Positions 19,759-61,395 of a stretch of DNA of 64,000 nucleotides are shown here, piece after piece. Each line of letters begins with the position of its first letter. The stretch's first letter is position 1. Below the pieces are notes generated by a model that saw nothing but the letters and a program-made list of their open reading frames with translations, did no database searches and had not been told where the DNA came from. Made by a program: the position numbers and the translations under genes. The stretch covers positions 806,001-870,000 of the forward strand of contig OZ024752.1 in assembly GCA_964016885.1 (NCBI GenBank), written 5' to 3'. Origin of the DNA: Eledone cirrhosa (Eukaryota).

Positions 19759-20428
19759 TTACACTGCCAAATTGAATCCTTTTGTCCATTCTAAAACATC
19801 TGAATCATGCATGCTGCCACTACTATTACTTTTTGGAACCAGAGAAGAATTGGTATATAAAGATGAGTGGTCACTAAGTAAACCACTCTTGGGTGTGCGG
19901 CTATCCTTTTTTACCAGAGCATAGTCATCTCCATTGACATAAAAATGCTGAAGGTCACGAAATACATCATCGTCACCCTTGCTTTCCTGGCTTTCCTTTC
20001 TTGCTAAAATGTCGGGATCAGAATTCTTCCGGCTAGTGAAAGAATTATCACCAATTTTCATGGTACCCATGTCAGGATATTTATTCTTTTCTTGAGTTGA
20101 ATAGTTACTTTCTGGAAATTCTTCTTCATTCTTAGAAAAATGAAAAACATTATCTTCCTTGCTAGTTGTAGAATCCATTGTCTTACCAGATTCATTTGTT
20201 GTCGAAATTAAAGAACTTTTTTTTTTGAAGAGCTTCGAATTAGAACCAGTCTTTGAATAATCACCGAGAAGATTATCTTCACTGTTCTTTGATCGACCAT
20301 TCTGTGTATCATTATCTCCTTCACCAAAATTTCCTTTCAGGTACTGGAATGATGCTAAGGGCTCGTTTGTGGTTCCGCTGTTAGAGCGTTCTTCTCTCTC
20401 TGCATTCGCAGCCAGGCACCGTCGACGT
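19759..20428 (-). CDS. Probable last coding exon of an unidentified gene (about 222 aa, low-complexity S/N/K/D-rich tail, ends ...KGFNLAV*)
   Basis: Minus-strand acceptor ccttttgtag| at 20429-20430, then an open frame RRRCLAANAEREE... continuous with ORF 19759-20178. About 220 open codons is unlikely by chance in this AT-rich DNA. Upstream exons not identified. Confidence 0.65.
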
Positions 20429-20732
20429 CTACAAAAGGCGAAGTTTAGGCATAAGACAGGATCAGAAATTTTCAGTTGTTGCTAGGAGGCGGTTTTGAAG
20501 TTCCACAAACAATCGCATTGGAAGTATTTCTGCAAAGATAGAGGACTTTCTAAGATTCAAGGAAGGATATATTATTATATGTTGTAATTCATTGCTTTGG
20601 ACCATTGCGATGGTTCATGGTTCTTGTAAAGGTCAGAATTGTATAAACCGTGAAGTCATTCCTGTATATATTCTGGTAGAAAATGGAAGTTCATTTAAAC
20701 CAGTGTTTTCCTTGAAGTAACAAGGTTTATTC

Positions 20733-29004: not shown

Positions 29005-29517
29005 TATATATATGCATGTGTGTGTGTGTGTGTGTGTGTGCGTGTGTGTGTGTATGCGTGTGCGCGTGTGTGTTGTGTGTATGTGTGTGTGTGTTGTGTG
29101 TGCATACAATACAATCACATATACATACGCAACAGATGCAGCGAGGGTAGCAACATACATACCCGCACAAGTTCACATTATTTGGTGTATTTTCCGTCAT
29201 GGTAGCGACGGGTTAGGATTTTGTATGAGTAATAATATTTAACGTTGTTTCAACTTCATAACACTAACCTATTTCTATACCAATAAACAAGTACATCCCC
29301 TTACATAAAGTATTTAATTATGTCCAAGAGTCACTTAAAAGACTCACTGGAAAAACCTTTTCTTCTTTTTCCGCATTTCTTCTTCTTTTTCTTCATTTTG
29401 TCTCATTCTCCTCATCCGTCTTCTTCGCACACTTATTCCTGAATTATCATTGCTTGTCGTGTCTCAATAAGGAGCTTAGACAATACTTTCTTGAATAAAT
29501 GTGCAGTGCCCAACAGG

Positions 29518-29570
<53 letters not shown>

Positions 29571-29573
<3 letters not shown>

Positions 29574-31203
29574 AAAGGCACCACTGATGCGCTCTTCCTT
29601 GTGAGGCAATTACAGGAAAAGTACCTAGCTAAAAGTAAGCCACTCTACTTGGCATTTGTCGACCTTGAGAAAGCCTTTGACAGAGTTCCACGTGCAGTAA
29701 TCTGGTGGGCTCTTAGAAAACTAGGAGTAGATGAATGGCTTGTGAAAGCGGTACAAGCCATGTATAGGGGAGCAGTCAGCAAAGTTAGGATTGGCAATGA
29801 GTATAGCGAGGAATTTAGCGTACAGGTTGGGGTCCACCAGGGCTCTGTTCTTAGCCCTCTCCTGTTCATCATAGTCCTGCAGGCAATAACGGAGGAGTTT
29901 AAGACCGGATGCCCATGGGAACTCCTGTATGCTGATGACCTCGCACTCATAGCTGAATCTATGGTAGAACTAGAGAATAAATTCCAAACCTGGAAGCAGG
30001 GACTAGAGAGAAAGGGCCTCAAAGTCAACATGACAAAGACTAAGGTCTTTATAAGTAGACGAGAAAACAGAACCCAGATCCCCTCAGGGAAATGGCCTTG
30101 CTCAGTATGTAGGAAAGGTGTAGGTAGGAACTCCATTCTTTGCCCCAAATGCAAACAATGGGTACACAAGAGATGTAGCGGGATCTCAGGAAGCTTAATT
30201 AAGAATGTAGGATTCACATGCAGCAGCTGTGCTGAAACAGCAAGCAAACAGCCACAGGAAACAAGTACCACCAATCTCTGGGAGGGCCCTGTAGAAACAG
30301 TAGACAGCTTCTGCTACCTAGGTGACCGAATTAGCAACGGAGGTGGGTGCTCAGAAAGTACAATAACTAGGGTAAGAACGGGATGGAAGAAGTTTAGGGA
30401 ACTACTACCACTGCTAGCTGCAAAAGGCTTCTCCCTTTCTCCCTCAGAATGAAAGGCAGACTGTATGATGCGTGTATCCGAACAGCGATGTTGCATGGTA
30501 GTGAGACCTGGGCGCTGAAGGTGGAAGACTTACGTAGATTAGAGAGAAACGAAGCCTGCATGCTCCGATGGATGTGTAACAGTAATATACGTGAACGACA
30601 AAGCATAAATGAATTGAGAGAGAGACTGAGCATAAGAGGAATCAAATGCTGCGTGCAGGAGAGGCGGTTACGCTGGTATGGACATGTGATGCGTATGAAG
30701 GATGACAGCTGCATAAAAAGGTGCAGAGCACTAGAAGTTGATGGAAACCGCGGAGTGGGGAGACCCAAGATGACTTGGGATGAGGTGATAAAAGCCGACC
30801 TTACCCAACTACACCTCTCAAAGTCAATGACACACGACCGTGACTTCTGGCGTCACGCAGTAATACAGGGTACCCGACCTCCCATGGGTACATGCTGAAG
30901 CATATAAACAATATGCCCCCCCCCCCCCACCGCAAGGTGGTCGTGGAGGTGCCACGGCAAAAAAGCACCCAGCCCACACTGTAAAGTGGACGTGTAGGCG
31001 CCACGAAAAAGCACCCAGCACTCACTGTAAATGAGGTTGGTGTTAGGAAGGGCATCCAGCTGTAGAAATCAAGCCAGATCAGTTCCTGTATGAGCAAGGC
31101 ATGGTCAGCCGACCAGACACTGCCCACAACAGGACAACCCGTCTAACCCATGCTAGCGTGGAAGAACGGACGTAAAACGGTGATGATGATGATGATGATG
31201 ATA
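29571..31203 (+). mobile_element. 5'-truncated, well-preserved RTE-clade LINE (RT, Cys/His finger, C-terminal region, 3' UTR, (GAT)n tail)
   Basis: FVDLEKAFDRV, GVHQGSVLSPLLF, LLYADD, FCYLG, LHGSETW, RRLRWYGH; one frameshift from an 8-nt duplication at 30429-30444. Confidence 0.95.
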
Positions 31204-38783: not shown

Positions 38784-39322
38784 CTAGATGTTGTCCACTG
38801 TGAAGGATAAAAGCTGGTGTATGTCCGTCGGATGGAGGCCGTAGCAGTGGACGTCTTCTGCGACCACGCAGTCCGTCAATAAATCGACAGCTGGATGAGC
38901 GGGCACTGTAGTGTAGAGGGAGACAACGTCGAGGCTAAAGGCGTATCTATTTAATTTAAGTTGTTCTGGCTGGAGTTGGTGTAGTCTACGTATGACTTCG
39001 TCGGAGCTACTGACATGCCCGGGAAAGGTGGAGAGTAGAGGCCTGAGACCTGGGAGAGGAGCCAGGAGATTTTGTATAGGGGCCCTTCTATGCTAGAGAC
39101 GATGGGTCTTATGTGTGTCTTAGTACTATTCTTGTCGGTCTTGATGAGGTGATAGAAAGTGGGCAGTCTGCTATTTCTAGTGGTGTGACTGAACTTAAAT
39201 TTATTTGGGAGTTGTCTTCTACTACAGATGTCGAACCAGATGGAGTTGGCCTGTTTTTTGATCTGGTCTGCAGTTATGTCCGGGACCTCTGTATACAGTT
39301 CGTAAGCGACAACGAACTTCGT
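38784..39322 (-). mobile_element. Penelope-like element RT fragment
   Basis: LPTFYHLIKTDK...IRPIVSSIEGPLYKISWLL, frameshift, then FSLDVVSLYTTVP. Confidence 0.88.
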
Positions 39323-39772
39323 ACTTACAAGCACACACACACTCTTTTACTTACATATACACACACATATCTTCTTAGCTTCGTACGGATGTATAATAAC
39401 ACACACACACACACAGAGACACGCATATGCTTGCGCACGTGCACATGTATAGCTCTTTATACAAAACGATTTTTTTCCATTTCAGGTAGACGCGCTCCAT
39501 CATCCACTTTTCTAAAATAATAAATCATACACAAAACGCCAACAACAACTGTTTTCCAAGAGATGGCAACATGAATGAACCTGTTACTTTTATCTAAAGA
39601 CATGTTTTCCAATTCCACCCTACCCGCCCCTTCAATCTATCTTATTTCTTATTCTTTCTTCCAATGAAGGAATCGCGTCCGAAACGTTAAGACCATCTTC
39701 CGGCTATTTCAAGCGTTAACCTAATATATACCTTCCATAAACTGTACCGATTGTGCAGTTATTTCTGTTTAC

Positions 39773-57374: not shown

Positions 57375-57531
57375 TACCAGCCAATATATATATATATATA
57401 ACCAGCCAATATATATATATATATATAACCAGCCTATATATATATATATATATATTACCAGCCTATATATATATATATATATATATATATAACCAGCCTA
57501 TATATATATATATATATATATATATAACCAG

Positions 57532-57576
<45 letters not shown>

Positions 57577-57607
57577 CCAGCCAATATATATATATATATA
57601 TAACCAG

Positions 57608-57682
<75 letters not shown>

Positions 57683-57723
57683 CCAGCCAATATATATATA
57701 TATATATATATATATACAACCAG

Positions 57724-57810
<87 letters not shown>

Positions 57811-57814
57811 CCAG

Positions 57815-57859
<45 letters not shown>

Positions 57860-57863
57860 CCAG

Positions 57864-57895
<32 letters not shown>

Positions 57896-57900
57896 ACCAG

Positions 57901-57932
<32 letters not shown>

Positions 57933-57937
57933 ACCAG

Positions 57938-57982
<45 letters not shown>

Positions 57983-57986
57983 CCAG

Positions 57987-58033
<47 letters not shown>

Positions 58034-58037
58034 CCAG

Positions 58038-58072
<35 letters not shown>

Positions 58073-58076
58073 CCAG

Positions 58077-58119
<43 letters not shown>

Positions 58120-58123
58120 CCAG

Positions 58124-58160
<37 letters not shown>

Positions 58161-58164
58161 CCAG

Positions 58165-58196
<32 letters not shown>

Positions 58197-58201
58197 ACCA
58201 G

Positions 58202-58240
<39 letters not shown>

Positions 58241-58244
58241 CCAG

Positions 58245-58279
<35 letters not shown>

Positions 58280-58283
58280 CCAG

Positions 58284-58318
<35 letters not shown>

Positions 58319-58322
58319 CCAG

Positions 58323-58359
<37 letters not shown>

Positions 58360-58363
58360 CCAG

Positions 58364-58402
<39 letters not shown>

Positions 58403-58406
58403 CCAG

Positions 58407-58445
<39 letters not shown>

Positions 58446-58449
58446 CCAG

Positions 58450-58500
<51 letters not shown>

Positions 58501-58504
58501 CCAG

Positions 58505-58555
<51 letters not shown>

Positions 58556-58559
58556 CCAG

Positions 58560-58598
<39 letters not shown>

Positions 58599-58602
58599 CC
58601 AG

Positions 58603-58657
<55 letters not shown>

Positions 58658-58775
58658 CCAGCCAATATATATATATATATATATATATATAACCAGCCAA
58701 TATATATATATATATATATAACCAGCCAATATATATATATATATATATATATATTATGACGGCGGTGGATTGGCA

Positions 58776-58811
<36 letters not shown>

Positions 58812-58820
58812 CCAGCCTAT
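57375..58820. repeat. Compound repeat: ACCAGCC(A) core separated by variable (TA)n, about 33 units
   Basis: Counted by eye. Confidence 0.95.
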
Positions 58821-58889
58821 ATATATATATATATATATACAATATGTTGAAAAGGTAACGCACCAGAGAGAGATATCGTGGTATATATA

Positions 58890-58921
<32 letters not shown>

Positions 58922-59124
58922 AATTGTTTCTACTTTTGGCACAAGGCCAGAAATTACCCAGTACATTACTGGTACTTTATTTTATCGACCCCGTAAGGAT
59001 TTGAACTCAGACCATAAAGGGCCGTAACTCTTTGCTGCAAAGCATGGCGTCAGACCCTCTACCGATACTACCAATCCATAGCAATATATAATCATAATAA
59101 TAATTATTTCTACTTTTGGGCATG

Positions 59125-60043
59125 CATAGCTATGAGTAATTAGGTAGAAACATTTGTTCTGCCTTTATAGGCTGTAGTAATTGGAAATCTCTATTGGGTA
59201 TGTGACTTACTTTTAGTAAATTACCGTAGCCAATATATGAACCTTTGTCTATGAATATTTCAAAGTATGGTTGTGGGTTCGGTACAAATACATGTTTTTT
59301 GTCGTCCATTCTCTGCATGTAATGTTGTCTATTTGGAATCCGAGGCTTTTAATTCTGTAGATGGTAGCATTATGTAATGATGCTTCAAACATGTTTGGTT
59401 TTATCCAGCTTATATATATATGGTACAATATAGTCTTGTGATTGTACCTCACCGTATGCATAATGTCCTAAGTTATGGTAGCCATTTTCATGTCCAAGGT
59501 ATTTAGTAAATTTTACTTTAGCGCTGTTCATGTCATATGTTTTGACTATGTTTTTGAATGTTCGTTGGAAGCAGTTTTTTCATAGTTTCCTGATTCGTTT
59601 GGCATGAATCCACCGATGTGGGTTCCTTGCCATCCGTTTGAATCTCCCGAATCGATCGATGTTTGTTGCGAATCAGCCATATCTTGAATAGAATTATGAA
59701 TATCAGTAATAACAAGCTCGTCATCTTTATGAGTCTGTCTGATGTAGCTGTCAAGTCCGATATAATGTTTAGCAGCGATGGCCGTACTTGCCAATATTCC
59801 TGTTGGTCCTGTATTGATTGCTCTATTGATGAATTCGTTATTAGCCTCTCAAGTATCCCTGTGTGGGTTTGTGTAGTCGATGTCATGTAATTTTGCTGCG
59901 AGATCTAATTCACTTCGAGGCGTATTATACTTCTTCTCGTATATATGTGTTCCTGGTCCTAAGAATTCGTAGCCTGGTACGTGATATTCTCTGCTATACG
60001 GTACTGGACGTTTACTTTTGCGATGTTTCTTCCCCGGTGGCAT
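59125..60043 (-). pseudogene. Endogenous parvoviral element: decayed VP1 capsid gene with PLA2 domain
   Basis: MPPGKKHRKSKRP...PGYEFLGPG...DLAAKLHDIDY, one in-frame TGA, then capsid-like segments FQRTFKNIVKTY, YIVPY..SWIKPNMFEASLHNATIYRIKSLGFQIDNITCRE and NPQPYFEIFIDKG across three frameshifts. Confidence 0.82.
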
Positions 60044-60499
60044 AGAGATGAATGAATTTTCGTGTTATATTTTTCAACTTTATAATCCCATGACGTCACC
60101 AACTCCATATAACTCAACTCAACTCTATCACTGGTCACAGGTTTTACATGACTTAAAGAATGCACTTCTTTTTTCCTGTAACAGCAATGGTACAATGGTC
60201 TAACACCCTCCTCCCACACCACTTTGTAATTAAATTTAATTGGTCGAGCAGGGATCACAAACTCTTCTTCTCTTCGCCCACTTATTCCTGCGAGGATCGT
60301 AGAGGCAGTCCTGTCAGAAGCAACCATCTCCAACTGATCCAGCTGGACCCCAAGCGTGACCAGCCAAGCTCATGGATGTTATCCAACCATTTTGCTCGGC
60401 GTCTACCCTTGGGTCTCCTACCAGTTGGTTTCGCCCGTAAAATCTGTCCAGCGATTCTTTCCAGAGACATTCTAACCACATGCCCATAGTATCGGACTG

Positions 60500-61395
60500 G
60501 GGTCTCCAAACTCAAAGACTCAAAAGAGCCATTGCGTCTTGGGGAAGGGGCGTCATTGTCACCAGTCACAATACTAATCTGCAATACAGTTGACAGGCTG
60601 CACATACACAAAGTCCTAGATTATTCTATATGTTCAAAGGCATTAAAAGTGCCCTTTCCCAGTTTTCTTTTTCTTATAAAAGCATTGTCAGAGTAAGCCG
60701 CCCCACCCATCTTTTGTGAAGGCAGAACCTCCCACACCACTCTCTCCATTTCCTCTTCAAGTGCTACTTGAATAAATTAATGGGGGTTTAGCCGGAAAGG
60801 AAAGTTCCTGTCCCCAAACCTTTCACTCGAGTCCCCCGCACAACTTTTATCATAGTCACAATGCAGAGAAAATATTGCCGCCCTTCTTTTCTCTCAGCTC
60901 ATTTCTGGGTGGTACTGGCCACTTTGATTACGATCTATTCGGTTATCTCTACCTGGAGGTCCAGTCTTAACTACACTCAGAGCACCTTATCCAGGCCCTC
61001 AGTCCAACGACAAAAAATACTGCTGAGTAACAATGGACTTGCTTTTTCATGAGCCGAATTTCAAGCCCACCGGCTTGTACGTGCACCCGCCACCTGCTGA
61101 TATTCTTTCAGTATAGCGCTAACAGTCTTCATCACATTCGATGCGTCTGATACAATGACATTGATAGATAGAGCTCTCCTGTGGCTCAGTTCGTGTAGGA
61201 TGCCTTCCGGGGTTTCAATCTTGCTAGGTAATAGCTCTAGAGGCAATACGAAGAGTAGAAAAGAAAAGAGGACACCCTTGATGGATCGAGCATGCCACCC
61301 TAAAGAGTTCTGAGATGTGGCTATTTAGTTTGATCACCGAATAGATGTCGCTGCATATTGCGACAATTCAATATCGGAAACCTAATACCGCAAAT
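60500..61395 (-). mobile_element. Highly decayed L1/Tx1-like LINE RT-region fragment
   Basis: LLFVLPLELL...VSAILKEYQQVAGA resembles sequence flanking the RT catalytic region; weak. Confidence 0.4.

Follow-up and report, generated by a model that had tools for sequence, protein, structure and literature searches.

A decayed parvovirus-type capsid gene in Eledone cirrhosa and related insertions point to a probable capsid-first parvovirus-like lineage of cephalopods

A truncated capsid gene among host repeats

The window analysed here, a 64,000-nucleotide stretch of the Eledone cirrhosa genome, carries on its minus strand a decayed and truncated insertion comprising the front half of a parvovirus-type capsid (VP) gene (Table 1). 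The gene opens at an ATG (60043-60041), is broken by an in-frame stop codon and changes frame near 59573, near 59415 and at 59294-59303, with simple-sequence runs at the breaks (A6 at 59575-59580, an AT run at 59410-59421 and A6 at 59295-59300). It ends abruptly near 59135-59115, at about half its length. The original prediction had described this ATG, the TGA and three frameshifts, and all of them lie where it placed them, joining pieces that are collinear on a capsid profile. The start methionine of the shorter major capsid protein likely falls within VP piece 2, and the fragment as it stands would be expected to yield neither a capsid nor an active phospholipase A2 (PLA2).

Table 1. Features of the element and its immediate flanks, in the direction of the capsid gene
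Feature	Position in window	Strand	Evidence
Host repeat adjoining the 5' side	60264..60506	-	Copies elsewhere in window; translation; high read depth
Viral left-end remnant and capsid promoter	60044..60260	-	TGACGTCA at 60098-60091, TATAAA at 60084-60079; without NS coding
VP piece 1 (basic N-terminus, calcium loop and His-Asp motif of VP1-type PLA2)	59852..60043	-	PF08398, E=6.7e-9; profile positions 1-58
In-frame stop codon TGA	59849..59851	-	Sequence
VP piece 2 (remaining PLA2, linker, Gly-rich stretch)	59573..59848	-	Profile positions 60-151, iE 9.4e-26
VP piece 3 (first jelly-roll strands, past frameshift 1)	59415..59573	-	Profile positions 153-206, iE 1.7e-20; 9me0 alignment
VP piece 4 (conserved helix and strand, AAV equivalent, past frameshift 2)	59294..59416	-	Profile positions 207-247, iE 2.5e-15; 9me0 alignment
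VP piece 5 (VQVFTD-equivalent strand, past frameshift 3)	59136..59303	-	Profile positions 247-302 of 609, iE 3.4e-24
Host SINE-like repeat and repeat tail adjoining the truncated 3' side	58905..59119		21 blastn hits in window including self; very high read depth

The continuity of the fragment was assessed with a capsid profile (A2, 609 positions) made from five related capsids and run over all stop-to-stop pieces in the three minus-strand frames. Five natural pieces between 60043 and 59136 tile positions 1-302 of the profile in order, with iE values from 2.5e-15 to 9.4e-26, and every other stop-to-stop piece in these frames scores below 0 bits. Full-length relatives reach 81-122 bits over the downstream part of the gene (HSP at about 59570-59136), whereas 50 shuffles of residues 131-330 of one relative reach at most 19.2 bits in 59100-59600. 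VP piece 1 matches the viral PLA2 family above the Pfam cut-off; three downstream pieces searched singly against Pfam gave no match, and a single-sequence PDB search with VP piece 1 returned a single weak match (E 0.76). The A2 profile can be aligned with goose parvovirus VP1 (9me0) over positions 7-266 (E=3e-6); this alignment takes in the RDWQRLINN and IQVFTD strands and so bears out the earlier suggestion that the downstream strands parallel those of AAV.

The element extends about 200 nt upstream of the start first assigned to it, with an outer edge that is uncertain to within about 60240-60263. This left-end remnant carries a putative capsid promoter, in which TGACGTCA lies 55 nt and TATAAA 41 nt before the VP ATG, and a TATA-like box occurs 33-47 nt before the VP ATG in 10 of 10 lineage-A copies examined (lineage A, defined below, being that of the window copy). 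The left end of the window copy does not fold into a significant hairpin (z -0.05). A search for NS1 within the window found no match, and there were no other viral matches in the window or the next 10 kb, leaving this copy alone among ordinary repeats. The flanking repeat at 60264-60506 is presumably the 3' fragment of a LINE-like element. The longest word common to the two junction zones has 6 nt (TAATTA) and is taken as chance rather than as a target-site duplication.

Germline integration, as originally proposed, is supported by the reads as well as by the stop codon and frameshifts. A single short-read contig of 1,244 nt spans 59090-60333 with 2 differences and links the element with the host repeats at either end, at a depth of 4.3 compared with 4.5 in unique flank, which is single-copy depth; the sample sequenced in that run may be the one used for the assembly. 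In a reduced-representation run from a second individual, a few reads fall within the viral part (59166-59402, depth about 1). A run from organism B gave no coverage of the viral part, a result with no firm bearing on the orthologous site.

Three other features of the window were recorded. Just downstream of the element lies a 1.4-kb satellite (57384-58839) of (TA)n runs parted by a fixed TTGGCTGGT word. At 19759-20481 on the minus strand, a 240-aa open frame with a high content of Ser, Lys, Asn and Asp has the look of a host exon and not of a repeat, and reverse-transcriptase fragments at 29499-30898 and 38784-39346 are, we assume, one LINE-type and one Penelope-like.

Parvoviral identity of the capsid

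The PLA2 motifs had been taken as defining a parvoviral VP1. The domain is indeed a viral PLA2 (PF08398), present in the window piece and in both lineages described below, as in Parvovirinae and Densovirinae, but the same domain also occurs in adintovirus- or Polinton-type elements and in Rep-encoding contigs. The available text of PMC8502044 describes a parvovirus-like PLA2 domain in an adintovirus, named PLA2X. When we searched viral contigs with the capsid alignment, 21 matched, over the PLA2 domain only, and those that were checked proved either adintovirus-type (integrase, A32 ATPase, double jelly roll) or Rep-encoding. Three contigs of the viral collection (L079, L080 and L096; 2.7-3.1 kb) pair a circular-virus Rep with a PLA2-bearing, capsid-sized ORF. 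PLA2 is not diagnostic alone; it is the downstream capsid homology, together with the linkage of paralogous capsids to NS1, that settles the parvoviral identity.

For the fold, we modelled a paralogous capsid with an open frame in place of the window piece, obtaining a low-confidence structure (mean pLDDT 42.9, pTM 0.38). Foldseek searches with this paralogue model returned Parvovirinae capsids in all listed rows of the PDB (best E 5.9e-7) and parvovirus or densovirus names in 49 of 50 BFVD rows (best E 7e-14), with TM-scores of about 0.2-0.3. In VIA-align the same model ranked parvoviral capsids 1 to 19 (best Z 12.8, rmsd 5.3 over 236 aligned residues), and the first non-parvovirus fold followed at Z 7.5. 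An atlas feature search also placed parvoviral capsid clusters first (0.96). The paralogue, and through it the family, is thus predicted to have a single jelly-roll capsid of parvoviral fold.

A PLA2 tree of 24 rows included seven adintovirus-type sequences, of which two were labelled after a Pfam check, one after a partial check and four by likeness. In this tree the window sequence groups with lineage A (86/91, not starred), apart from all seven. Adintovirus PLA2X shares the parvovirus-like domain with the window family, but it has neither a single jelly-roll capsid behind it nor an NS1 and sits instead beside integrase, A32 ATPase and double jelly-roll genes; no integrase, PolB, A32 ATPase or double jelly-roll gene was found among the window frames near the element. 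The parvoviral origin originally proposed for the capsid is supported by the capsid profile, the fold searches with the paralogue and the NS1 linkage of paralogues, and the fold, profile, NS1 linkage and PLA2 tree contradict the contrary possibility that the downstream protein lacks a jelly roll and that its PLA2 groups with Polintons or adintoviruses.

Two lineages of copies in the genome

In the 3.0-Gb genome, VP piece 1 has 26 matches and Parvo_NS1 has 29 over the cut-off, the latter a signal seen in 0 of 14 control genomes. The 101 loci that we fetched represent at least 45 sites on 21 contigs and divide into two lineages, A (that of the window copy, capsid about 610 aa) and B (capsid about 520 aa), whose capsids share 21% identity and whose NS1 proteins share about 20%. 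The closest capsids outside the genome are four proteins, 38-40% identical, on contigs of 3.4-4.5 kb. PF01057 scored above its cut-off in 4 of 4 NS frames of paralogous copies, and the best solved relatives of the paralogue NS1 are AAV Rep and an NS1, with the HFH motif in the alignment. An NS1 with a predicted SF3 helicase and HUH endonuclease is therefore a feature of the paralogous copies, absent from the window. We found 30 NS1 relatives (28 assemblies and two cuttlefish proteins); the cuttlefish proteins, 60-64% identical over the helicase, are the only named ones, in keeping with the poorly sampled mollusc-infecting lineage that had been suggested.

The window copy shares 65-68% DNA identity with its nearest paralogues, a figure that reflects virus diversity as well as decay, so the copy is not datable. 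In lineage B, by comparison, 0-4 of 1,566 bases separate five capsid genes that lie on four contigs, and these near-identical sequences point to recent integration. The short-read contigs covering this young unit have a depth of 14-18, three to four times single copy, and reads at least 99% alike occur in two other individuals (7 and 5 reads); short, repeat-like joint matches in another organism's contigs were left out of evidence. The near-identical copies lie at G000 C5:102.83 Mb, C10:49.49 Mb, C14:8.50 Mb and C998:35-39 kb (L033, L034, L063, L065-L067 and L074), in inverted, rearranged concatemers.

Capsid before NS1 in the integrated copies

Gene order was read from integrated copies alone, by counting same-strand neighbours within 1 kb across the 101 loci. 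As each locus took in 1.5 kb around a match to a VP start, a lineage-A VP end, an NS start or a helicase, either gene order could have shown up. VP was followed by NS in 33 cases, 23 of them end-to-start and on 13 contigs, with a gap of 30-77 nt in 21 of the 23; five of these junctions form one near-identical set and are not independent. NS was followed by VP in 7 cases, none of them end-to-start. For a young copy, short reads assemble into a contig that runs across the VP-NS1 junction.

The gene pair is bounded by predicted hairpins. Those upstream of VP have z-scores of -8.1 (lineage A) and -36 (lineage B) and those downstream of NS1 of -14.4 (A) and -25.7 and -7.2 (B), and one truncated left end has no significant hairpin (z -2.4). 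An AATAAA signal stands ahead of the right hairpins, which are unlike the left ones, although the two lineage-B hairpins have a common core motif. The ends are about 4.0 and 4.3 kb apart in the paralogues, which thus have the terminal hairpins and the 4-6 kb genome characteristic of Parvoviridae, features that the window copy, with no significant hairpin, does not display itself. Young copies also contain head-to-head and tail-to-tail inverted duplications about the hairpins, of the kind that rolling-hairpin replication would leave. One tandem array has a lineage-A VP that begins about 680 nt after a full lineage-B NS1, with a polyadenylation signal and a hairpin between them.

As the window copy has no NS1 and no significant hairpin, this architecture is borrowed for it from relatives at about 35-59% protein identity. 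Searches for free-virus loci that would show gene order returned no matches in viral contigs with either NS alignment and none in metagenome contigs. The accessible part of PMC11357303 puts NS at the left and VP at the right in all parvoviruses, and the 23 VP-to-NS end-to-start junctions, against 0 in reverse, depart from that order. We therefore refer to a parvovirus-like lineage with a non-canonical order and not to a canonical member of the family. The capsid-before-NS1 order likely marks an undescribed parvovirus-like lineage of cephalopods.

Expression signals and a proposed origin

The two lineages differ in the signals around their gene junctions. In lineage A, NS1 has its own ATG shortly past the VP stop in 6 of 7 junctions, and TATAAAT lies 55-86 nt upstream of that ATG in 5 of 7; the codons at the VP end would give TATAAA about 34% of the time, so TATAAAT stands weakly above expectation. 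All 13 hand-picked NS starts of lineage B have a pyrimidine-rich CAG, behind which the NS1 frame opens in phase 0. A 54-nt (18-codon) leader running from ATG to GTAAG stands just before the VP ATG in 6 of 8 VP starts (15 records), three of the six being identical copies; the remaining two have an equivalent 18-codon stretch, one ending in GTGAG and one without the ATG. These conserved splice signals predict that the lineage-B VP gene is located inside an NS1 intron.

We propose that the source virus had, on one strand, a left hairpin, a promoter, the PLA2-capsid gene, the NS1 gene, a polyadenylation signal and a right hairpin, in a genome that would have been linear and single-stranded and replicated by rolling hairpins. 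Replicative forms may have been captured by chance at DNA breaks, as suggested by the lack of a target-site duplication and by the inverted dimers in young copies. In lineage A, the left promoter would drive VP and NS1 would be translated from its own ATG just past the VP stop, conceivably under a second promoter in the last VP codons, an idea we hold weakly. In lineage B, one promoter might serve both genes, the unspliced RNA making VP and the RNA in which the 18-codon leader exon is spliced in frame over the whole VP gene making NS1. The window copy would later have lost its 3' half by deletion and then decayed without a protein product. We consider it likely that the window element is a half-length capsid piece with its promoter, lodged in host repeats and derived from a cephalopod virus with a capsid-first, hairpin-ended, one-strand genome. 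Several parts of this explanation are read directly from the DNA, namely the window piece with its breaks and host flanks, the junctions at which the capsid gene precedes NS1, and the hairpins that other copies carry.

Alternative explanations

The reversed order could have arisen secondarily, if an ordinary NS-left, VP-right parvovirus had been circularly permuted or rearranged at integration. Many copies are indeed rearranged, with inversions and internal deletions, and the 7 NS-then-VP neighbours would fit. Permutation, however, would leave the joined termini in the interval that separates the end of VP from the start of NS; that interval is instead short, and divergent copies from both lineages conserve it; the hairpins and polyadenylation signal lie outside the gene pair, and no NS-then-VP neighbours meet end-to-start. 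We regard this origin as very improbable. A source virus whose single-stranded genome was circular and encoded a parvoviral NS1 and capsid, so that order would be meaningless and the hairpins would be one origin, is only slightly less so. PLA2-bearing capsids do occur in circular Rep-encoding contigs, and the core motif common to two lineage-B hairpins could be read in this way, but the hairpin at the left is unlike that at the right and inverted duplications are centred on each of them, as in rolling-hairpin replication, and a same-lineage head-to-tail repeat with a conserved junction was not seen in 20 regions.

Two further readings concern the window piece itself and find almost no room in the data. 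One takes its PLA2 from a Polinton or adintovirus (PLA2X), a circular Rep-encoding virus or a host enzyme, with the downstream pieces unrelated, as might be suspected from the 21 PLA2-only contigs; the downstream pieces are, however, collinear with full capsids that fold like parvovirus capsids, paralogous capsids adjoin Parvo_NS1 genes, and the PLA2 tree sets the window apart. The other, that the assembly wrongly incorporates the DNA of an infecting virus, gains what plausibility it has from the fact that the sole reads supporting the full length may derive from the sample that was assembled; against it stand the stop codon and frameshifts, the contig crossing both junctions at unique-flank depth (the reads joining element and repeats whose lack would have counted against integration) and the few reads from the second individual. 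Retention of the piece by the host as an antiviral small-RNA template, a role proposed for shrimp IHHNV insertions in the available text of PMC9357335, seems unlikely, though less so than the other alternatives. Copies do cluster in the genome (four VP-NS units lie on one strand at C12:9.07-9.09 Mb), but the window copy stands alone among ordinary repeats, and such a role would add to the fossil reading, not displace it. Derivation from a capsid-first virus remains the reading that we prefer.

Relation to known parvoviruses

The fossil is real, as first proposed, but a cephalopod parvovirus fossil is not in itself new. Cephalopod parvovirus fragments were listed in 2016 (François et al., PMC5013282), so the host association was already known; the accessible text reports NS fragments from three species (Octopus bimaculoides, Sepia officinalis and Euprymna scolopes) together with a VP transcript from O. 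vulgaris, and has marine mollusc sequences branching apart from the known genera. Judged by eye, the helicase fragment given there for O. bimaculoides resembles lineage B and the Sepia and Euprymna fragments lineage A. As far as that text shows, the 2016 sequences are short fragments without the gene order, termini, splice model and copy catalogue presented here, and what is new is the dozens of copies and their reversed order. A word search of the accessible text of PMC10612026 and PMC6950620 found no octopus passage. In the literature searched, from which subscription journals mostly fell outside so that an earlier description is possible, there was no capsid-first same-strand parvovirus and there were no cephalopod parvovirus genomes.

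The window family resembles Parvovirinae (dependo-, boca-, tetra- and protoparvoviruses) in its VP N-terminal PLA2 and single jelly-roll fold, in an NS1 with an HUH-like HFH motif and SF3 helicase, and in having both genes on one strand of a genome of about 4 kb with terminal hairpins. It differs in capsid identity, which is 9-16% in structural alignments, in its invertebrate host and in having VP upstream of NS1, where Parvovirinae have NS on the left (PMC11357303, in the part accessible). Also comparable is the lineage of Swazi bat megaparvovirus and beetle insertions, likewise known partly from endogenous copies, in which a PLA2-bearing ORF lies 5' of NS1 (PMC13426907, available excerpt). 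According to the same excerpt, that PLA2 ORF is separate and the capsid gene follows NS1, whereas here the whole PLA2-capsid gene precedes it, and the genome is 6.4 kb compared with about 4 kb. The extra ORF described in the accessible portion of PMC11125579 leaves NS1 before VP.

In the usual view of parvoviruses, an early NS1 promoter stands at the left hairpin and a late, NS1-dependent capsid cassette lies downstream. A capsid-first genome with both genes on the same strand must time them differently from NS-first parvoviruses, a problem for which lineages A and B seem to have separate solutions: an NS1 start codon of its own in A and splicing over VP in B. The plan also gives a genome layout to the cephalopod fragments left unplaced in 2016 and bears on how often PLA2 and capsid modules have been reshuffled within the parvovirus family. 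The window piece itself is merely a marker of this group. More broadly, cephalopods probably host an unclassified, subfamily-level group of parvoviruses that is capsid-first between hairpins, has one branch with an intron-nested capsid and is still integrating, entry into the germ line being judged from the 0-4 base differences between copies on different chromosomes. These copies point to a recent or living cephalopod virus open to direct search.

Mixed viral arrays

A tandem array at G000 C12:9.066-9.096 Mb (L056-L058) contains both lineages on one strand and includes the four VP-NS units at 9.07-9.09 Mb. About 430 nt found before its lineage-B unit recur before its lineage-A unit at 90-96% identity, which may reflect host duplication, recombination or ends common to two segments of one virus. 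Multi-piece viral clusters, often with both lineages, also occur at C2:345.36-345.38 Mb, C25:7.44-7.46 Mb, C841, C7:5.23 Mb and C18:15.04-15.08 Mb and are candidate small-RNA clusters or integration hot spots. At G000 C2:345.371 Mb (L008/L019), a lineage-A capsid gene adjoins a decayed transposase-like frame, which we take to be of hAT/Buster type.
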